A DNA stretch of 64,000 nucleotides from Thermodesulfovibrionales bacterium (GCA_044450345.1 JBIOIY010000002.1:64001-128000), one strand, 5' to 3'; numbered from the stretch's first letter, positions 2,145 to 39,570 are shown. Notes: generated by a model from the sequence alone, not told the origin. A program made the numbers and translations.

Positions 2145-3314
2145 ATGAAGGATATTTTGGATAGTCTTTCCACAGAGTCAGGAGAATCCCTTGAAAGGCT
2201 CATAAAGGGAGGGGTGTCACGCAGGGATTTCCTTAAATTCTGCACAGGAGTTGCAGTACTGCTGGGACTCCCTGTGGCAATGGGCTCAACGATCGCGGAG
2301 GCTGTGATAAGCTCTAAAAGGCCTCCTGTCCTTTGGCTCTCTGCTCAGGAATGCACCGGCTGTACTGAGAGCCTCTTAAGAACAAACCATCCGACCCTCG
2401 AAAAACTGATCCTCGAACTTATATCCCTTGATTATCACGAGACCCTTAATGCGGGGGCAGGGCATCAGGCCGAGGCTGCGCGTATTAAGTCAATGCAGGA
2501 GAATAAAGGGAAATATATTTTGGTGGTGGACGGTTCCATCCCTGTTAAGGACAATGGAATCTACTGCAAGATCGGCGGAAAAACCGCCCTTTCACTCCTC
2601 GAAGAGATGGGATCCCAGGCAGCGGCGGTCATTGCGATTGGTTCTTGTGCCTCCTGGGGAGGGGTACCTTCTGCAGATCCTAACCCGACCGGAGCAACCC
2701 CTGTTCATGAAATCTTCAAGACCAAGGGCATAAAAACACCGGTCGTAAATATTCCAGGATGTCCTCCCAATGGCTATAATTTTCTTTCCACGGTTTTGTA
2801 CTTCGTGACATTCAAAAAACTTCCGGAATTGGATGATCAGGGCAGGCCCAAGTTTGCCTATGGAAGGATAATACACGAAAACTGCGAACGGCGCCCTCAC
2901 TTCGACGCCGGCAGGTTCGCGGTGGAGTTCGGAGATGAAGGACACAGAAAAGGCTACTGTTTGTACAAACTGGGATGCAAAGGACCTGAGACATATAACA
3001 ACTGTCCCACATTGCTTTTTGGAGATGTGGGGTCCGGTGCGTGGCCTGTGGGGACGGGGCATCCCTGCTTCGGATGTTCCGAAAAAGGGGTCGGGTTTAC
3101 CGTGCCCCTCCATACTCCGTCGAGGCCGCAATATCTTACCCCTCCGGCGTTGTTTACGGAAGTCTACCCCGGTAAAGAAGGTGTTCCGTCGGGAGTCAAG
3201 GCACTGGCTGCCGGCTTTGCGGGAGCAGCGATAGGAGCTGCGGGAGCGGCAATACTTACCGGTCTTGGCAAGAAGGACGAAGAAAAAGAAGACAAAAAAG
3301 ACAAGGAGGGTTAA
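2145..3314 (+). CDS. hybO: [NiFe]-hydrogenase small subunit (Hyb type), Tat substrate
   Basis: Tat motif SRRDFLK, QECTGCTES, GSCASWGG, PGCPP, HENCERR, CLYKLGCKGP, GHPCFGC, C-terminal hydrophobic anchor. Confidence 0.93.
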   Translation: MKDILDSLSTESGESLERLIKGGVSRRDFLKFCTGVAVLLGLPVAMGSTIAEAVISSKRPPVLWLSAQECTGCTESLLRTNHPTLEKLILELISLDYHETLNAGAGHQAEAARIKSMQENKGKYILVVDGSIPVKDNGIYCKIGGKTALSLLEEMGSQAAAVIAIGSCASWGGVPSADPNPTGATPVHEIFKTKGIKTPVVNIPGCPPNGYNFLSTVLYFVTFKKLPELDDQGRPKFAYGRIIHENCERRPHFDAGRFAVEFGDEGHRKGYCLYKLGCKGPETYNNCPTLLFGDVGSGAWPVGTGHPCFGCSEKGVGFTVPLHTPSRPQYLTPPALFTEVYPGKEGVPSGVKALAAGFAGAAIGAAGAAILTGLGKKDEEKEDKKDKEG

Positions 3315-3318
3315 GGCC

Positions 3319-4314
3319 ATGAGTATGGAAAGGCGAGACTTCTTGAAGATAGCCGCCGGAAGCGGACTGCTCCTTGCCTCTAAAGTGAACCCCGCACTTG
3401 CCAGCATGCCTACGGAGCTGCCTCCTCAGGCCGTCGGCATTCTTTATGACGCGACGCTCTGCATCGGCTGTAAGTCCTGTATGGTGAATTGCAAGATTTA
3501 CAATAGCGTACCGGGCGGAGCGCTTTATCAGAAAGGCCGCACAATCTCGTATGAAGTGAAGCCTGGTGAGCCTTATTGGGATGCGGCGGAAAATCTTTCA
3601 TCGAAAACGGTCAATGTTATCAAGATCAATAAAAGCGGGACTGGAGTGAACAAGGACAGCGTTGAAAACGGCTTTTCCTTCATAAAACAGCACTGTCTTC
3701 ATTGTATATCTCCGGCCTGCGTATCGGTATGCCCGGTCGGTGCAATCAAAAAAGATCCTGTGAACGGTGTCGTCTCGTATGATCGAGACCGGTGCTTCGG
3801 TTGCCGTTACTGTATGATTGCCTGTCCGTTCAATATTCCGAGATATGAATTTGAGAGCGCGAATCCAAGGATCAGGAAATGCCAGCTGTGCTATCACCGG
3901 TATGCGGAAGGAAAGTATTCCGCATGCTGTGAGTTCTGCCCGACAGGGGCGTCAATTTTCGGAAAGGTCGTAGACCTCAGGAAAGAGGCCCAAAAAAGAC
4001 TTACGCTGAAACCCGGAACAGAGTATGACTTTCCGGTTCAGACAGTCGATTCGACTCAAAAAATGCGACGCCCTGTTTCAAAGTATTTAAACCATGTTTA
4101 CGGAATGACGGAGGTGGGGGGCACCCAGTATCTATTACTTGCCGGGGTGCCGTTTGATTGGCTGGGATTCAACAAGAATATCAAGGACTCTTACCTTCCC
4201 GATCTTACCTGGGCGTACATAGCCAAGATTCCGGCTGTGATCGCAGGGATAATCCTCGCCGGCACAGCGACCTGGGCCGTTACCAGGAACAAGAACAAAG
4301 ATAAGGAGGGATGA
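3319..4314 (+). CDS. hybA: Hydrogenase-2 periplasmic ferredoxin-type subunit (4x[4Fe-4S])
   Basis: Tat motif ERRDFLK, four Cys-cluster motifs (CIGCKSC, CLHC..CVSVCP, CFGCRYCMIACP, CQLC..CCEFCP), C-terminal TM helix; RBS AGGAGG before ATG 3319. Confidence 0.92.
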   Translation: MSMERRDFLKIAAGSGLLLASKVNPALASMPTELPPQAVGILYDATLCIGCKSCMVNCKIYNSVPGGALYQKGRTISYEVKPGEPYWDAAENLSSKTVNVIKINKSGTGVNKDSVENGFSFIKQHCLHCISPACVSVCPVGAIKKDPVNGVVSYDRDRCFGCRYCMIACPFNIPRYEFESANPRIRKCQLCYHRYAEGKYSACCEFCPTGASIFGKVVDLRKEAQKRLTLKPGTEYDFPVQTVDSTQKMRRPVSKYLNHVYGMTEVGGTQYLLLAGVPFDWLGFNKNIKDSYLPDLTWAYIAKIPAVIAGIILAGTATWAVTRNKNKDKEG

Positions 4315-4318
4315 CCAT

Positions 4319-5446
4319 ATGAACCAGCGAGACATTAAACTGATCACTCCTACCACTGTGGTGCTGCTTCTTATCATTGCCGTTGGCGCTGTCGCTGGCC
4401 TGTACCGGGTGTTCTTCGGACTCGGGGCATCAACGCATCTCAATGATGTATGGCCGTGGGGTTTATGGATATCCTTCGATGTCTTGGGCGGCGTTGCTCT
4501 GGCAGCAGGAGGGTTTGTCATTGCAGGAGCGGTTTATATTTTGAACTGGAAGAAATACAAGCCGATTGTAAGGCCGGCGATACTGAACGCATTTTTCGGT
4601 TATCTCCTGGCGGCTACTTCAATAACGCTTGACATTGGGCTTCCCTGGCGCATATATCACCCATTGATTATGTGGCAGATCAACTCTATTATGTTCATTG
4701 TGGCCATCCATGTGGTGCTTTATACGACCACTCTTGCTACAGAGTCCAGTCCGATGTTCTTTGAGAAACTCAAAATGCCGAGGGCCCTGAACTTCATTCA
4801 AAGGATTATGGTAGGCATAGTCTTGTTCGGCGTGCTTCTTTCCACGCTGCACCAGTCATCACTCGGAGCGGTCTTTCTTATCGCTCCGACGAAAGTGTCA
4901 CCCCTTTGGTACAGCAGCAAGCTCCCTTACATGTTTCTTGTCTCTGCAGTAGTGCTGGCGCTTTCAATGGTGAGCTTTGAGACGATTTTGAGCGGAAGGG
5001 TCTTTAAACATAAGCCCCCCATGGACATCCTCCACGGCATGGCAAGGGGTTCTTTGATTGTTATCGGTCTTTATTTGTTCCTGAAAATATGGGACCTGGT
5101 TAGAGGCCCTGGCATAGGACTGGCGTTTAACGGGAGTCTGACTTCCAATATGTACCTCCTTGAAATGATCATAGGGATTATTCTTCCCTTTGTATTACTT
5201 CTGAATAGCGGCGTTAGGACCCGGCTAAACGGCATTTTTTGCGTCAATATACTCGTGATAATCGGAACCGTGCTCAATCGTATGAACGTCGGCATCTTCA
5301 GCATGGTCGAATACAACGGTTTGATGGGGCGTGATTATTTCCCTTCGTGGATGGAAATCGCGGTCACGATGGCGATGGTGGCCTTTGCAGTTTTGGGATT
5401 TAAAGTCTGCGTAAAATACTTGAATGTTCTGAAACTGGAGCACTGA
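4319..5446 (+). CDS. hybB: Hydrogenase-2 integral membrane subunit (NrfD/HybB family)
   Basis: Multi-TM protein; PWGLWISFD, LHQSSLG, PLWYS motifs; lies between hybA and the large subunit. Confidence 0.92.
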   Translation: MNQRDIKLITPTTVVLLLIIAVGAVAGLYRVFFGLGASTHLNDVWPWGLWISFDVLGGVALAAGGFVIAGAVYILNWKKYKPIVRPAILNAFFGYLLAATSITLDIGLPWRIYHPLIMWQINSIMFIVAIHVVLYTTTLATESSPMFFEKLKMPRALNFIQRIMVGIVLFGVLLSTLHQSSLGAVFLIAPTKVSPLWYSSKLPYMFLVSAVVLALSMVSFETILSGRVFKHKPPMDILHGMARGSLIVIGLYLFLKIWDLVRGPGIGLAFNGSLTSNMYLLEMIIGIILPFVLLLNSGVRTRLNGIFCVNILVIIGTVLNRMNVGIFSMVEYNGLMGRDYFPSWMEIAVTMAMVAFAVLGFKVCVKYLNVLKLEH

Positions 5447-5495
5447 CTATGCGTATGAACTATAGCAGGAAAATATATTTCAGGAGGTGGTCGAC

Positions 5496-7196
5496 ATGGC
5501 AAAAAGGATAACAGTTGATCCCGTAACAAGAATAGAGGGACATCTGAGGATAGACTGCGAAGTTGATGGCGGCAAAGTCACAAATGCCTGGTCCTCCGGG
5601 CAGATGTGGCGAGGGATAGAGGTTATCCTCAAGGGACGCGATCCGCGCGATGCATGGTTATTCACACAGCGCTTCTGCGGCGTCTGAACGTCGGTCCACG
5701 CACTGGCTTCAGTGCGTTCGGTAGAAAACGCCCTGGGGATGGAGATCCCTGTGAATGCGCAATATATCAGGAACATGATTATGGGCGCTCACGCAACACA
5801 TGACCATATCGTCCATTTTTATCATCTTGCCGCTCTCGACTGGGTAGATATCGTCTCAGCCCTTAAGGCCGATGCAAGAGCGGTTTCGAACCTGGGCCAG
5901 AAGCTTTCTCCATGGACGGGGAACAGTTACGCCGAGGTCAAGGCATCTCAGGACAGGCTGAAGACTTTTGTGGGTTCAGGTCAGCTCGGTGTGTATGGAA
6001 GCGGCTATTGGGGCCATCCTGCAATGAAGCTTGCGCCCGAGGTGAACATGCTTGCGGCCCATCATTATCTTCAGGCGCTTGAGTACCAAAGGGAGATCAA
6101 TAAGGTCGTCGGCATTCTCGGCTCGAAGACGCCGCATATACAGAACGTGGCCGTAGGAGGAGTTTCCAATGCCATCAATCTGGACAGCCCTTCGACCCTC
6201 AACATGGAAAGGCTGTACTATATCAAGACGCTGATTGATAAGGTCGGTGACTTTGTTGAAAATGTGCTGCTCGTGGACACTGCCGCAGTCGCTGCGTTTT
6301 ATGCGGAGTGGACAAAGTACGGCTCTGGCGTGATGAATTACCTTTCGGTTCCAGATATGCCAATGGACACTAAGGGTACGACCTTTGCGCTTCCAGGCGG
6401 ATACATCCCCGGTGGAGATGTGGGTAAATTCCAGGCGATAAAGAGTTATCAGGACCCGTTCTTCCGCGATAATGTCAAGGAGAGCATCAAACATTCCTGG
6501 TACGACGGCGACTGGGACCGCCACCCGTACGAGGAAGATACGCTTCCGAAATATACCGACTTCCAGGACAAAGGAAAATATTCATGGGTTAAGTCGCCGA
6601 CTTTCAAGGGTAAACCGGCACAGGTGGGGCCGTTGGCCAATGTTCTCTGTATGTTTGCAGCGGGCCACGAGCCGACAAAAAAGTACGCCACGAAGATGCT
6701 TGATACTATAAGCGCCCTGGCCGGTACTAAAGTCGGGATTGCAGCGCTCCACTCGACAATCGGCAGGATCGGTGCCAGGTCAATCAGGTGTGCGGTACTC
6801 TACGATACCCTAAAATCGCAGTGGCAGGCGCTCGTAGAGAATATCTCGAAGGGAGATGTCAAGACCTTCAACCACCCGACTTTCCCAGCGGGCGAACAGA
6901 GGGGTTATGGTTTTCACGAGGCCCCAAGGGGCGCTCTCTCTCATTGGATCGTCATTAAGGACGGGGCGATAAAGAATTATCAGGCCGTAGTGCCTTCGAC
7001 ATGGAACGCCGGCCCCAGGAACAGCGAAGATGCATTAGGGCCTTATGAGGCTTCCCTTATCGGAAACCCCGTGATAGACGCTGAAAAGCCTCTCGAGGTA
7101 TTGCGGACCGTGCATTCGTTTGACCCCTGTCTTGCATGCGCCATACATATGGTCGACAAGACTAATAATGAAATCGTGAAGGTCAAGGCGGTCTGA
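5496..7196 (+). CDS. hybC: [NiFe]-hydrogenase large subunit (566 aa) with in-frame TGA at codon 64, probably selenocysteine
   Basis: ORFs 5487..5687 and 5712..7196 share a frame, separated only by TGA 5685-5687; read-through gives DPVTRIEGH...QRFCGV[TGA][10 protein letters not shown]...DPCLACAIH plus a cleavable C-terminal tail; RBS AGGAGG before ATG 5496. Confidence 0.85.
5698..5717 (+). promoter_or_regulatory. Candidate bacterial SECIS element
   Basis: ACGCACTG-GCTT-CAGTGCGT: perfect 8-bp stem, 4-nt loop starting with G, loop 18 nt after the UGA. Confidence 0.7.
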
Positions 7197-7203
7197 TAAG
7201 AGC

Positions 7204-7722
7204 GTGAATGTCCTTGTACTCGGGATAGGCAATGTCCTTATGATGGACGACAGCGTCGGAGTGCGTGCTATCGAGGAGCTCGAGAAGAGATACTGCTTCC
7301 CGCAGGGCGTGGAGCTTCTCGACGGCGGTACTTCGGGCATCGAACTTCTCTCGTATATAGGCGACCGCGATCATTTGATCATAATTGACGCGCTGAAATC
7401 GGGACTTCCTCCTGGGACGGTCGTGAAAGTGGAAGGCGAAGATGTTCCCGCAAGGTTCATGACGAGAATATCGCCGCACCAGCTAGGTCTGTCCGATGTA
7501 CTTGCGGCAGCCACAATTTCCGGCCAGCTCCCGAGAAATTTGGTGCTTTTCGGGGTCGAACCCAAAACAGTCAGGCTCGGCCTTGGCCTCTCAAATGAGG
7601 TCAGGGCGAGCCTTGACAAGTTGGTGAGCACGGTGATTGAAGAACTCGGACGCATCGGATGTGCGGTGGAACCTGCTGAGATCGTGTCAACCAGGAGTAC
7701 ACTATGGGAGGCTCTTGGGTAA
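7204..7722 (+). CDS. hybD: Hydrogenase maturation endopeptidase
   Basis: VLGIGNVLMMDDSVG, LLDGGT, IIDA, SPHQLGL motifs; directly after the large subunit. Confidence 0.92.
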   Translation: MNVLVLGIGNVLMMDDSVGVRAIEELEKRYCFPQGVELLDGGTSGIELLSYIGDRDHLIIIDALKSGLPPGTVVKVEGEDVPARFMTRISPHQLGLSDVLAAATISGQLPRNLVLFGVEPKTVRLGLGLSNEVRASLDKLVSTVIEELGRIGCAVEPAEIVSTRSTLWEALG

Positions 7723-7921: not shown

Positions 7922-8608
7922 ATGAGAATTTTGTTGGTAGAAGACGAGCAGAATGTGGCCTCTTTTCTGAAGAAGGGACTCGAAGAGGAATTTTATACAG
8001 TAGATGTTGCAGAGGATGGGGGAGACGGTTTTGCCATGGCTACTTCCAAGGAATATGACTGCATCATTTTGGACGTAATGCTGCCCGAGATCAGCGGTAT
8101 CGAGATATGCAGGAAATTGAGAAGCTCGAACGTAAAAACGCCGATACTCATGCTCACGGCCCTCGATTCCGTGGGCAGCAAGGTCGAAGGACTTGAAAGC
8201 GGCGCCGACGATTATCTTACAAAACCATTCGCCTTTTCAGAGCTCCTTGCGCGGATAAGGGCATTGTTGAGGAGAGCACCGGATTCGCTGAGCGAGCTTA
8301 CACTGAACGATTTGCGCATGGATCTTTTGTCTAGGAGAGTTTTTAGAGGTGAACAGGAGATCATTCTCACGCAGAAGAGCTTTGCAATCCTCGAATATTT
8401 TTTAAGAAACAAGGGGAGGGTGTTGTCCAGAACACAGATTATTGAGAACATCTGGGGATATAATTTTGATCCGAATACCAACGTAGTGGACGTACATATA
8501 AAGTTTCTGAGAGAAAAAATAGACAAGGAATTCAATAAGAAATTGATTCATACGGTCAGGGGATCGGGGTATGTACTGAAGGCCGAAGATGATAGTCAGG
8601 ACCTTTAG
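7922..8608 (+). CDS. OmpR-family response regulator (CusR/CzcR-like)
   Basis: LLVEDE, LDVMLP, DDYLTKPF receiver motifs; winged-helix end IHTVRGSGY. Confidence 0.93.
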   Translation: MRILLVEDEQNVASFLKKGLEEEFYTVDVAEDGGDGFAMATSKEYDCIILDVMLPEISGIEICRKLRSSNVKTPILMLTALDSVGSKVEGLESGADDYLTKPFAFSELLARIRALLRRAPDSLSELTLNDLRMDLLSRRVFRGEQEIILTQKSFAILEYFLRNKGRVLSRTQIIENIWGYNFDPNTNVVDVHIKFLREKIDKEFNKKLIHTVRGSGYVLKAEDDSQDL

Positions 8609-9959
8609 GTTAAGGCTGACCATAATCTACACGCTCGTAGTTGCGGGAATACTTTCCGTGTTTGCGACTGCGATTTACTTTCAATACAGGCACAGCTTGT
8701 CGAAAGAGATTGATAGCTACCTGATTAAGGAAGCAAACGAGGAGATCCTCGTCGAGAGCAACCCTAAACTCCCCCCTAAAAACCGCCAGGTCATAAAGAG
8801 GTTCGGTGACGAGTTCTTTGAGGTCATCGACAACAAAGGGCAGGTACTCATTACGTCGCTGAGCGCAGAGAATCAGCGCTGGCCGCTCGACAGCGAAACG
8901 CTGCTGAAAGCATTCAAGGGGGTTCCCCAGTTCAGCACCGTTTATTTCAGAGGTGCGAATTACAGGATCCTTTACTTTCCGATCAACGCGGAAAAGATAT
9001 TGAGGATAGTCTTGTCCCTGGGAGAGATCGAGGGAAGCATCAGAAGCCTGAGGAATCTCTTTCTCCTCTCTCTCCCGTTTGTCGTGTCTATGTCCTTCGC
9101 CGCCAGTTGGTTTCTTTCCGGCAAGGCCCTGTCGCCTATTATAAAAATCAGCTCGCTTGCGAGTCAGGTAAGAGAGGGAAGGCTGGTCAAGAGGATTGAA
9201 ATGGAGACAAAAGGTAAAGAAATTCAGGACCTGGTGGTCATCTTCAACGAGATGCTCGACGGCATCCAGCACTCTGTCGAGTCGCAAAAGCGATTCACCG
9301 CGGCGGTTTCGCACGAGGTGAGATCTCCCCTTACCTCCTTAAGGGGGAACATCGAAGTAGCATTAAGGAAGAAAAGGACCCCGGAGGAGTATGAGGACAT
9401 CTTAAATACAAACCTTTCCGATATTATAAGACTTTCAAGAATTACGGATAACCTCCTTTTCTTTACCAAGGCCGATAATAATATCCTCGAATTGAGGAAG
9501 CAGTGGTTTGAGGTCTCACATCTACTGCAAAATATTGTTGAGCGCCTAAAATACAGGGCTTCAGCTGCGGGGATCACAATCTCTGAGTCTTATCAGGACG
9601 GGATCGAGATGCGCGGCGATCTTGATCTCCTCGAACAGGCATTTTCCAATATCGTCGAGAACGCAATCAATTATACTCCTTCCGGAGGGATGATATCGGT
9701 GACTTCGAATAGAGAAGATGATAAGATCATCATTTCGATCAGCGATACGGGGATTGGAATCCCTGAAGACGAAATACCCCACTTATTTGAAAGGTTTTAC
9801 AGGGTCAATAAGGAGCGTTCGAGAAAGTCAGGGGGGACGGGACTCGGTCTCTCTATAACAGAGTGGGTCCTCAACGCCCATGACGGAAAGATTGAGGTAA
9901 AGAGTACCCTGGGGGCGGGCAGCGAGTTCATTACCTCATTCCCGGTCTCTAAGGATTAA
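8589..9959 (+). CDS. Sensor histidine kinase (CusS-like; two TM helices, HAMP)
   Basis: SHEVRSPL H-box, ENAINYT N-box, DTGIGI, FERFYR, GTGLGL. Confidence 0.93.
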   Translation: MIVRTFRLRLTIIYTLVVAGILSVFATAIYFQYRHSLSKEIDSYLIKEANEEILVESNPKLPPKNRQVIKRFGDEFFEVIDNKGQVLITSLSAENQRWPLDSETLLKAFKGVPQFSTVYFRGANYRILYFPINAEKILRIVLSLGEIEGSIRSLRNLFLLSLPFVVSMSFAASWFLSGKALSPIIKISSLASQVREGRLVKRIEMETKGKEIQDLVVIFNEMLDGIQHSVESQKRFTAAVSHEVRSPLTSLRGNIEVALRKKRTPEEYEDILNTNLSDIIRLSRITDNLLFFTKADNNILELRKQWFEVSHLLQNIVERLKYRASAAGITISESYQDGIEMRGDLDLLEQAFSNIVENAINYTPSGGMISVTSNREDDKIIISISDTGIGIPEDEIPHLFERFYRVNKERSRKSGGTGLGLSITEWVLNAHDGKIEVKSTLGAGSEFITSFPVSKD

Positions 9960-17230: not shown

Positions 17231-17743
17231 TCAGAACATCGCTTTGATCTGACTCTTCTCGTCAGGGGAGTTCCAGTCAGCTCCGCCTATTACTCGCCTG
17301 ACCAACACACCCTTCTTGTCGACAATATACGTCTCCGGAACACCCGTCACGCCGTAATTTCGTGCAGAGCTGCCGTCGGGGTCGACGTACACCGGAAACG
17401 TATAGCCGTTTGATTTCATATAACCGATGGCATTCCCCGGGCTGTCCTTATAAAGAATCGTAATCATTACAAAATCTTCTTTGCCCATCATCTCCCTGTA
17501 AAGGGCCTCGATGGAAGGCATCTCTTCCTTGCAGGGCTGGCACCAAGACGCCCAGAAATTGACAAAAATTATCTTGTTCTTCAGATCGGAAGAAAACAGC
17601 TCTTTGCCGCTCGCCGCATCTCTTACTTCAAAACCAGGTGCCTCCGACCCCTTCCCGATATTGCTGCTGCGGGTTGCGTTGAAAAAAAGAAAGGCCGCGC
17701 CTGCTAGAAGGAGGACGGCCAAAATTATGACCTTGTGTTTCAC
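17231..17743 (-). CDS. TlpA/ResA-family thiol-disulfide oxidoreductase
   Basis: N-terminal anchor, NFWASWCQPCKEEMP, GVPETY. Confidence 0.9.
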   Translation of the reverse strand: MKHKVIILAVLLLAGAAFLFFNATRSSNIGKGSEAPGFEVRDAASGKELFSSDLKNKIIFVNFWASWCQPCKEEMPSIEALYREMMGKEDFVMITILYKDSPGNAIGYMKSNGYTFPVYVDPDGSSARNYGVTGVPETYIVDKKGVLVRRVIGGADWNSPDEKSQIKAMF

Positions 17744-36385: not shown

Positions 36386-36664
36386 CTATACAAGAGACAC
36401 CCTTCTCTCTCTCGCGAAATTTCTAATTATCATTGTGGCGGAAAATAACCTCTGAAGTTTAAGGTTTCTGCTTCGTATCGCAAAGACATCGTGGGTCGGG
36501 AACCTCTCAGCCCTGATCTCATTCTGGACCTTCGATATCTCAACATAGAAATCACGCAGCGTTTCGTGCTCAAAGGATTTCAGAAACAACGGATTCACCA
36601 CCACGTATCCCTCCGCGATGTCATGAATGGTTGCCTTAAGACTCTTTCCCCTCACGTTTGACAT
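36386..36664 (-). CDS. Hypothetical protein
   Basis: 92-aa ORF overlapping the tatC end and filling the gap; no recognised motif. Confidence 0.6.
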   Translation of the reverse strand: MSNVRGKSLKATIHDIAEGYVVVNPLFLKSFEHETLRDFYVEISKVQNEIRAERFPTHDVFAIRSRNLKLQRLFSATMIIRNFARERRVSLV

Positions 36665-37427
36665 GCTTCTTCTTTCTATATAAAAATCTGGATACTAGTA
36701 TACCAATTTCATAAAGAATTATAATAGGGACAGCCATTAGGGTTTGATTGAAGGCGTCAGGCGTCGGGGTAAGAATGGCGCCGGCAATAAACGCAAAAAG
36801 TACTGCAAATTTTCTATTTTTGGCCAGCATTGCCGGAGTTACGATGCCTATGCGTGTCAGGAAGATAATCACAAGAGGAAGCTCAAAGATAACGCCAAAG
36901 GCGAGCACGAATTTGAGGCAGAAGTCCACATAGCTGCCCACGGACAACATAGGTGTCATATTCTGCGTCTTGTATCCCAGCAAGAAGGTTATCGCAAAGG
37001 GAAGCACGATGCTAAAACAAAAGAACGCGCCTAATATAAACATTGCCGTAGCAAAAAAAACGAAAGGCAATACATATTTCCTTTCTTTGTCGAGAAGCCC
37101 GGGAGAGATAAAGCGCCACAGCTGGTAAAAAATTATCGGGAGAGAAAGAATCAGGGCGGCGACAAGGGAGACCTTAAGGTGCATCCAAAAGGCCTCGGCG
37201 GGCGCCAGGAAGACCAGGGGGGCGGCTGTCTTCTTGATTATCTGAAAATAGGGGGAGACAGGGCTAATCTTGAGCTCGGACCTGAGTGGAAAGGTGATCA
37301 CGTCAAAAATCTTTTCGGAGTAATTGAAGACCCCGACAAACACAACAAAGATCGCGGCCAGAGAAACTAAAATTCTCTTGCGAAGTTCGGTAAGGTGTCC
37401 TGTCAGGGGCATCTTGTAATTTTCCAA
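36636..37427 (-). CDS. tatC: Twin-arginine translocase subunit TatC
   Basis: HLTELRKR, QLWRFISPGL..ERK, FELP, TPTPD, LYEIG. Confidence 0.96.
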   Translation of the reverse strand: MENYKMPLTGHLTELRKRILVSLAAIFVVFVGVFNYSEKIFDVITFPLRSELKISPVSPYFQIIKKTAAPLVFLAPAEAFWMHLKVSLVAALILSLPIIFYQLWRFISPGLLDKERKYVLPFVFFATAMFILGAFFCFSIVLPFAITFLLGYKTQNMTPMLSVGSYVDFCLKFVLAFGVIFELPLVIIFLTRIGIVTPAMLAKNRKFAVLFAFIAGAILTPTPDAFNQTLMAVPIIILYEIGILVSRFLYRKKKHVKREGKES

Positions 37428-38509: not shown

Positions 38510-38644
38510 TAATAGAAAAAATAGCAGAAAAATCTCAGACTGTCAATGAAACTCTCCTTTTTGAGTTCAGTGACGCCTGCGTTTCATTGACAAACAACGT
38601 CTATTATAACTATAATGAAACTCATTTATCTTAGGAGGTATTAT

Positions 38645-38977
38645 ATGGCTGAAGGGATTCTTGAGGTTACCACAGCTTCATGGGAACAGGAAGTCTTGAA
38701 TGAGAGCGGATTAGTGCTGATCGATTTCTGGGCAGTGTGGTGCGGTCCTTGCCGTATGATAGCACCGACAGTAGAGGAACTGGCGAAGGAATATGCGGGA
38801 AAGGTAAAGGTCGTAAAGTTAAATACAGACGAAAACCCCGAAATAGCCAGTCGATATAAAATAATGGGCATTCCGACGCTTATGTTCTTTAAAGCAGGCC
38901 AAAAAATAGATCAGATCGTAGGCGCTGTGCCAAAGCCGCAGCTTAAGGCAAAACTCGAAGCGCTGATTAATGCCTGA
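38645..38977 (+). CDS. trxA: Thioredoxin
   Basis: [26 protein letters not shown]. Confidence 0.96.
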
Positions 38978-39039: not shown

Positions 39040-39570
39040 GTGTGGTTTGTGAAAAGAGCATTGCTTCTTATTTTTTTACTCATATCGCTGTGCCTTGTCT
39101 CATGCACAAAGAGCGACACCGGAACGGAAAAGCTTTCCCCTTCACAGACTGCAGGCATGGCGCCGGATTTCGTCCTTAAGGATATCGAAGGCAAAGACAT
39201 ACAGTTGTCCCGCTTCAAAGGAAAAATGGTCGTACTGGAGTTTTGGGCAACATGGTGTCCCCCCTGCAAGGCAACGATCCCGGAATTGATCGCAATGCAA
39301 GAGAAATATGCCGGAAAGGGGCTGGTGGTGCTCGGCATTTCCATTGATGAAGGCGGAGATCTTGCCTCGAAATTGTCTGCTTTTTCAAAAGCGAACAAGA
39401 TCAATTACCCGATATTACTCGGTAGCGAAGAGGTCTCCAGGGCCTACGGCATCATGAGCGTCCCAGCCACGTTTCTTATCGGCAAAGACAACAAAATCAT
39501 CACCGCATACAAGGGATACGTTGATAATCTTGAGGCCCTCATATCTCAGCAGATAGACAAAAACATATAA
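39040..39570 (+). CDS. TlpA-family thiol-disulfide oxidoreductase (lipoprotein)
   Basis: Lipobox-like LVSC, APDF, EFWATWCPPCK, SVPATF. Confidence 0.9.
   Translation: MWFVKRALLLIFLLISLCLVSCTKSDTGTEKLSPSQTAGMAPDFVLKDIEGKDIQLSRFKGKMVVLEFWATWCPPCKATIPELIAMQEKYAGKGLVVLGISIDEGGDLASKLSAFSKANKINYPILLGSEEVSRAYGIMSVPATFLIGKDNKIITAYKGYVDNLEALISQQIDKNI

Follow-up and report, generated by a model that had tools for sequence, protein, structure and literature searches.

The question raised by this locus is whether an in-frame TGA in a hydrogenase gene is read as selenocysteine (Sec). The locus lies in a stretch of 64,000 nucleotides (nt) from a Thermodesulfovibrionales bacterium (GCA_044450345.1 JBIOIY010000002.1:64001-128000), hereafter the window, in which hybC, the gene for a [NiFe] hydrogenase large subunit, occupies positions 5496-7196 of the plus strand. 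A first-pass annotation of the DNA had proposed Sec at a metal ligand of the product. The explanation that is very probably correct is that UGA64 is read as Sec, directed by SelB and a selenocysteine insertion sequence (SECIS); the product would be an uptake hydrogenase of the Hyb type whose Ni and Fe share a selenolate ligand. The observations behind this reading are a conserved UGA, purifying selection before and after this codon, a constrained hairpin, the Sec machinery of the genome and the membership of the gene in the Hyb type.

Translation of 5496-7196 gave a frame of 566 codons that is read through one internal TGA, at codon 64 (5685-5687, plus strand), in the context R59-F-C61-G-V-[TGA]-T-S-V-H. 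In the alignment of the orthologues this codon, the proposed Sec, corresponds to the second Cys in RxCGxC and stands opposite Cys64 of E. coli HybC. The C-terminal motif DPCLACAIH (7122-7148, plus strand; Cys545, Cys548 and His551) contains an ordinary DPCLAC and is followed in the translation by a tail of 15 residues. All three features, the single TGA, its place in the motif and the ordinary C terminus, are as the first-pass annotation had described them. The mature E. coli HybC chains (552 amino acids, aa) align to hybC residues 1-551, and the tail would be cut off by HybD. The four-Cys ligand set (RxCGxC ... DPCxxC) is therefore not complete in hybC, with TGA at one position and Cys at the other three. 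It is established for [NiFe] hydrogenases that Ni and Fe are bridged by this second N-terminal Cys, and Takano et al. 2026 (PMC13582414) state the same for CXXU. The stop codon of hybC is also a TGA (7194-7196). Thus, TGA still ends translation in this organism and has not been reassigned genome-wide. Translation table 11 splits the frame into two open reading frames (ORFs), at 5487-5687 (66 aa) and 5712-7196 (494 aa).

The hybC product is the large subunit of a Hyb-type (Group 1c, E. coli hydrogenase-2-like) [NiFe] hydrogenase. Its best solved relative is E. coli hydrogenase-2 (Hyd-2; 6EN9) with 783.5 bits, the next family reaching 576.5, and it is 59% identical to E. coli HybC, with which it is colinear with one gap. 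A quick maximum-likelihood tree of 70 large subunits placed both proteins in one 59-row clade (SH-aLRT 100); the sampling was enriched for TGA forms, and the direction of Sec/Cys change is not readable from this tree. The score against NF007778 (hydrogenase 2 large subunit) is 875.9 bits, with the next family at 500.7. This score is under the equivalog cut-off of 969, so that the hybC product is a relative rather than an equivalog by that rule. The models of the NiFeSe families are not reached (NF033181, 469.9 bits with a cut-off of 600; NF045518, 352.6 bits with a cut-off of 780). The full Hyb-type operon set is present, with a small subunit carrying a twin-arginine translocation (Tat) signal, the HybA Fe-S protein, the HybB membrane protein and the HybD protease. 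The window resembles E. coli HybOABC (Group 1c; 6EN9, 6EHQ) in gene order, C-terminal motif and 15-residue tail. However, E. coli has Cys64 where the window has UGA64, hybE, hybF and hybG do not lie directly downstream in the window, and the HybC, HybO, HybB and HybD of the window score under NCBIfam equivalog cut-offs.

The TGA recurs at the same codon in related genomes. Exactly one TGA is present in 16 further full-length orthologues at 84-96% identity, found in 60 related genomes; with the gene of the window itself, the count is 17 of 17 full-length orthologues at 84-100% identity. One orthologue among the relatives, 73% identical, has no TGA and reads RICGVC at the motif. In all 18 one-TGA loci inspected the TGA falls in the RFCGV-U column, which argues that the TGA at codon 64 is not there by chance. 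An even sample of 301 genomes from the phylum contained 29 genomes with a Hyb-type orthologue covering the site (at least 72% identity), 24 with TGA and 5 with Cys. Hence both halves of the expected pattern were found, TGA recurring at this column in relatives and TGC or TGT standing there in Cys-type orthologues and in E. coli. Cys occupies the column in L039, L174, L175, L177, L193 and E. coli HybC. The apparent extra TGAs or missing C-terminal motifs in three loci (L062, L063 and L066) were traced to masked bases or frameshifts and are not Sec sites. Sec-type and Cys-type large subunits are interspersed in the tree. The two forms interconvert over short distances, since a full-length Cys64 relative exists at 88% identity.

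A scan with a degenerate pattern over one genome per species widened this distribution to at least 119 loci, at least 65 with C-x-x-U and at least 54 with U-x-x-U (U, Sec). Among the matches listed, all 119 loci sit in hydrogenase large-subunit frames, and an RxEG motif stands exactly 47 residues upstream in 118 of them. The C-terminal motif was reached in 68 of the 80 listed loci with long flanks and reads DPCxxC in 68 of 68. By their record titles, the listed loci belong to Nitrospirota, Chloroflexota (Anaerolineae), Thermodesulfobacteriota, Spirochaetota, Methylomirabilota/Rokubacteria and Nitrospinaceae; one of them, L070, comes from a MAG labelled Desulfobacca acetoxidans. The C-x-x-U variant is thus spread over many uncultured bacteria. 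Two Nitrospirota records match genomes of the phylum sampled above with identical proteins, which places the organism of the window in Nitrospirota.

Comparisons of hybC with its orthologues by the Nei-Gojobori method, where dS was unsaturated, showed ratios of nonsynonymous to synonymous divergence (dN/dS) of 0.018-0.086 over the first 63 codons and of 0.018-0.038 from codon 65 to codon 566. In most orthologue pairs dS was saturated, and dN there was 0.02-0.11. The ratio is thus similarly low on either side of the TGA, and this purifying selection indicates that codons 65-566 are translated. Contigs of two other studies, from peat and soil metagenomes, span hybC with 61 and 36 differences (2-3% diverged) and therefore come from other strains. 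None of the differences seen at 5447-6395 in these contigs affects 5685-5687. Two metatranscriptome libraries likewise gave contigs across the TGA site, over 164 and 204 nt with two differences each; the contigs of these libraries cover 14 and 12 of 30 bins.

A SECIS-like hairpin is predicted by folding shortly downstream of the UGA (5698-5717, plus strand). It begins 10 nt past the UGA and has an 8-bp stem (5698-5705 paired with 5710-5717; nt 14-21 and 26-33 counted from the U of UGA) and an apical loop GCUU (5706-5709). In 31 distinct window-type sequences 98% of the cells are paired, compared with 50% or less after sliding the partners against each other. The loop opens with G (column 22) in all 31, and Takano et al. 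2026 (PMC13582414) give a G as first or second loop base as the rule for SECIS elements. In a clade of 31 sequences set by the protein tree and not by the presence of the hairpin, the mean synonymous entropy of the seven hairpin codons is 0.20 bits, as against 1.29 bits for 117 other conserved degenerate codons, and the hairpin stretch has the lowest synonymous entropy of 118 sliding windows. The same codons vary freely in Cys-type orthologues and in E. coli. The hairpin after UGA64 is thus under selection as RNA.

Hyb-type orthologues of another class encode the peptide H-A-L-[A/T]-S-V-R-S-V through other synonymous codons and form a different hairpin a few bases further on. The remaining N-terminal-Sec hydrogenases (93 distinct sequences) share a 6-bp hairpin in which all pairs but one show double changes (5 of 6; 54 cells); its observed score was reached by none of 500 shuffles, and RNAalifold found the same stem unaided. 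A raw count of residues in the Sec and Cys forms of the Hyb orthologues, uncorrected for phylogeny, gave Leu70 (versus Ile/Val) and Ser75 (versus Ala) as two of the three best separators, and both lie in or next to the hairpin codons (window 5700-5720). The pattern suggests that the RNA signal may dictate the choice of amino acid at codons 70 and 75 of hybC.

Profile matches for selA (608.7 bits), selB (382.4 bits) and selD (357.8 bits) were found in the genome. A whole-genome ARAGORN run identified a tRNA-SeC of 98 nt with anticodon tca, the sole tca tRNA, and a normal 76-nt tRNA-Cys as the sole gca tRNA. Those of the next-best Rfam matches to tRNA-Sec that were typed by ARAGORN are Leu, Trp and Ser tRNAs. 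The selD gene itself has an in-frame TGA, in the context SSCAG-U-AAKF (G000:C28:7518-8441, minus strand; locus L010). The region after the selD UGA folds differently and gave no loop motif shared with the hybC hairpin.

The public gene calls show what becomes of such genes in databases. Among the 120 protein clusters nearest to the 494-aa piece, truncated calls that start just after the TGA make up 90; their lengths are 466-500 aa, and 64 of them have exactly 494 aa. The remaining clusters comprise one of 530 aa and 29 of full length (566-567 aa). Position 64 is Cys in each of these 29, which include a protein of 88% identity. The prediction that gene callers would split these genes was therefore borne out. 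Gene callers hide the Sec forms, because the nearest truncated calls begin just past the TGA and the full-length ones are all Cys64. Hydrogenase surveys that start from called proteins lose the N-terminal motif of these genes, since the public entries are truncated at this codon, and the H2 metabolism of Nitrospirota, Anaerolineae and Desulfobacterota in soils, peat and sediments may be mis-scored.

In the proposed mechanism, the hairpin at 5698-5717 would recruit SelB carrying Sec-tRNA(Sec), and translation would go on past UGA64 to the full 566 residues. The product would serve as the catalytic subunit of a periplasmic, membrane-anchored uptake [NiFe] hydrogenase of the Hyb type, in which Sec64 would replace the Cys that bridges Ni and Fe while Cys61, Cys545 and Cys548 would remain Cys ligands. 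We infer that selenium is actually incorporated at residue 64; the bridging geometry would follow from the alignment with Cys64 of E. coli HybC and from the literature, and any catalytic consequence of Sec64 is presumptive. All three computational tests that had been set beforehand as possible refutations came out favouring Sec: contigs of two other DNA studies keep TGA at the site instead of TGC or TGT, dozens of independent assemblies share the TGA that might have been unique to this one, and selA, selB, selC and selD are all four in the genome that might have lacked them.

Several results weigh against the reading of UGA64 as Sec. The support for Sec64 is at the level of sequence throughout. 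In the recoding test, only 4 of 3000 synonymous recodings of the own peptide folded the hairpin stretch as stably, a significant result in favour of the hairpin; but this hairpin-only stretch was picked after the fold was seen, and recoding of the whole 48 nt was not significant (417 of 3000 as stable). The fold of the 66 nt downstream is ordinary compared with shuffles (z = -0.89, 36 of 200 folding as well), a test that is uninformative because the flanks dilute the 20-nt hairpin. Compensatory double changes are absent from the window-type hairpin (0 of 8 pairs in the 31 sequences); the stem is almost invariant, so that covariation neither supports nor refutes the hairpin. An Rfam scan of 5400-6000 yielded no matching family, only two matches at chance level (E = 3 and 3.6). 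The comparison with independent DNA used contigs, not raw reads, and 70 rows of differences lie outside it. The presence of selA is consistent with Sec and does not discriminate, as 60 of 61 relatives have it. Finally, the 30 tRNAs were found in an assembly that is 91% complete, which leaves room for a Cys-inserting tRNA(ReC). A SelC*-type tRNA(ReC) would recode UGA64 as Cys via the same SECIS/SelB route and yield an ordinary four-Cys Hyd-2. According to Takano et al. 2026 (PMC13582414), tRNA(ReC) does decode UGA as Cys when a SECIS is present, which limits every in-silico call, and the tRNA set found here is small. However, the single tca tRNA is typed SeC, the sole gca tRNA is a normal tRNA-Cys, the next-best tRNA-Sec candidates that were typed are Leu, Trp and Ser tRNAs, and selA and selD are both present. 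Moreover, tRNA(ReC) occurs in only ~2.3% of the other (non-UXXU) Sec-type genomes in the data of PMC13582414. Recoding as Cys is considered very unlikely.

Two further explanations do without recoding of every UGA64. Termination would leave two pieces, of 63 aa and of 494 aa starting at the GTG at 5712, and partial Sec insertion would make the codon a selenium-dependent throttle. Table 11 yields exactly two such ORFs, and the 494-aa form is called in 64 of the 120 nearest clusters. However, the truncated database forms start at differing residues, as artefacts of gene callers would, and a split would break the CxxC motif and lose one metal ligand. The first 63 codons are under equally strong purifying selection, and the constrained hairpin has no role in a split or throttled gene. 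Such an outcome is very unlikely indeed. The idea that the TGA arose by mistake in sequencing or assembly, or that hybC is a recent pseudogene, has the bare stop codon alone in its favour. The same codon in dozens of independent assemblies and in the 2-3% diverged contigs of two studies, the downstream dN/dS of about 0.02-0.04 and the intact rest of the operon leave next to no probability for error or decay. The reading of UGA64 as Sec is further supported by E. coli hydrogenase-1 (Hyd-1) and Hyd-2, which are active when Sec is engineered in at the corresponding position.

These engineered enzymes carry Sec at the same ligand position as proposed for the window. The Hyd-1 variant C79U retained 13% of the native H2-oxidation activity (Evans et al. 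2021, PMC8020662), and all four Hyd-2 variants, with Sec at positions 61, 64, 546 and 549, showed activity, though less of it (Evans et al. 2024, PMC11212049). Their Sec was introduced through suppression of UAG in a scaffold adapted to Cys, whereas the Sec of the window would be natural, SECIS-directed and conserved in many species. In the canonical [NiFeSe] hydrogenases (Desulfovibrio/Desulfomicrobium HysAB, 1CC1 and 2WPN; methanococcal Fru/Vhu), one UGA-inserted Sec is likewise a metal ligand. However, it occupies the first C-terminal Cys (DPUxxC), a terminal Ni ligand, where the window has DPCLAC, and the structures 1CC1 and 2WPN match the window protein over residues 177-561 only.

The first-pass annotation regarded the gene as a candidate new kind of [NiFeSe] hydrogenase and knew of no described natural example. 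The literature does not sustain either statement. N-terminal CXXU, with a predicted Ni-Fe bridging role, was published in 2011 for two sequences of Group 1 and one of Group 3 (Baltazar et al. 2011, cited in PMC13582414), CxxU was noted in FrhA from a symbiont metagenome (Zhang et al. 2007, PMC1976440), and Sec64 of E. coli Hyd-2 had been engineered. Evans et al. 2021 (PMC8020662) also mention 'purported examples' of a substituted bridging Cys. The natural CXXU and CxxU sequences have Sec at the same position, the second N-terminal Cys; the 2011 record as cited holds only two Group 1 sequences, compared with 24 of 29 Hyb-type orthologues in the phylum sample here. N-terminal CXXU, UXXC and UXXU forms have been described for Group 4 hydrogenases (Takano et al. 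2026, PMC13582414). As in the window, these have Sec in the N-terminal motif only and a SECIS-like hairpin with a G at loop position 1 or 2, and their Sec/Cys distribution is a mosaic, as it is in the family of the window. However, they are cytoplasmic energy-converting complexes, whereas the window would encode a periplasmic Group 1 uptake enzyme. In the part available, a 2026 review of prokaryotic selenoproteins (PMC13188914) lists hydrogenase catalytic subunits with UxxC only and puts [NiFeSe] enzymes exclusively in sulfate reducers and methanogens, and a 2023 selenium review does not mention a natural bridging Sec in the portion that was accessible. The Dissulfurirhabdus genome paper names Sec as a tRNA only, with no mention of its hydrogenase in that regard. 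A full-text literature search, with most subscription journals outside its coverage, found neither a study of a natural Hyb-type CXXU enzyme nor a Group 1 survey comparable to the Group 4 one. What is new beyond the literature found is the Hyb-type context, the dominance of the Sec form in Nitrospirota Hyb orthologues and the alternative SECIS built from synonymous codons.

In a paralogous large subunit of Group 1, ~50% identical, both N-terminal Cys positions are TGA (R-I-U-G-V-U), and DPCMAC is kept. It accounts for 27 rows among 61 relatives and for at least 54 scan loci (e.g. L043-L051, L055, L084 and L129). In a genome of the same genus (G003), two genes ~2.2 kb apart (C22:25030-26730 and C22:21091-22788) place the two-TGA form beside the one-TGA form. 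A search with hybC as the query did not find the two-TGA paralogue in the 91% complete genome of the window itself. Takano et al. 2026 (PMC13582414) describe UXXU as new, but for Group 4 alone. One further locus, L165 (171 residues, 300-nt flanks), reads R-F-U-G-V-U and has the window-type hairpin. From L165, the two-TGA form may also arise inside the Hyb-type clade of the window.

To our knowledge, Se is a terminal Ni ligand in every [NiFeSe] hydrogenase that has been studied structurally and electrochemically. A natural Se-bridged enzyme would be a counterpart to the engineered Sec variants of E. coli Hyd-1 and Hyd-2 and would directly test the part of each ligand position in catalysis and in O2 and sulfide tolerance. 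A broader proposal, put forward tentatively and with rather less than even confidence, is that a Se-bridged Ni-Fe site is the usual form in Nitrospirota Hyb enzymes and common in several other anaerobic phyla, and that it is kept, and repeatedly swapped with Cys, for a distinct catalytic property that has no counterpart in the engineered E. coli variants. For instance, O2 or sulfide might inactivate the enzyme in another way, or its affinity for H2 might differ. If the proposal holds, the related U-x-x-U form in the same lineages would carry two Se ligands.

The five consecutive genes of the operon, all on the plus strand, were named by NCBIfam and have an order identical to E. coli hybO-A-B-C-D. 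The frames of the four genes around hybC are all open, so that the rest of the operon is intact, as had been claimed. The small-subunit gene hybO (2145-3314), with a Tat signal at residues 24-53 (TIGR01409), scores 480.2 bits against NF007779, below the cut-off of 659, and 435.8 bits against TIGR00391 hydA (cut-off 179.5). The gene for the Fe-S electron-transfer subunit, hybA (3265-4314), matches NF008134 HybA with 355.7 bits, above the cut-off of 263; its start codon is uncertain, and the ORF as given overlaps hybO. The integral membrane subunit is encoded by hybB (4319-5446), which reaches 281.2 bits with NF008133 (Ni/Fe-hydrogenase cytochrome b subunit) and 281.6 bits with HmcC, both below their cut-offs. 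From the HybA and HybB partners, H2 oxidation by the Hyb enzyme would probably be quinone-linked. The maturation endopeptidase gene hybD (7204-7722) scores 156.4 bits against TIGR00072 (cut-off 47.45) and 155.3 bits against TIGR00140 hupD (cut-off 151.8).

Directly after hybD, where E. coli has hybE, hybF and hybG, lies a CopR/CopS-like heavy-metal two-component pair (7922-9959). No hyp maturation genes are present within the 64-kb window. A tatC gene (36639-37427, minus strand) lies in the same window, in keeping with export of the HybO-HybC dimer by the Tat route. Genes for thioredoxin and AhpC/TSA-like redoxins are located at 17234-17743 (minus strand), 38615-38974 (plus strand) and 39040-39567 (plus strand), and these families often have Sec forms in Sec-using bacteria.

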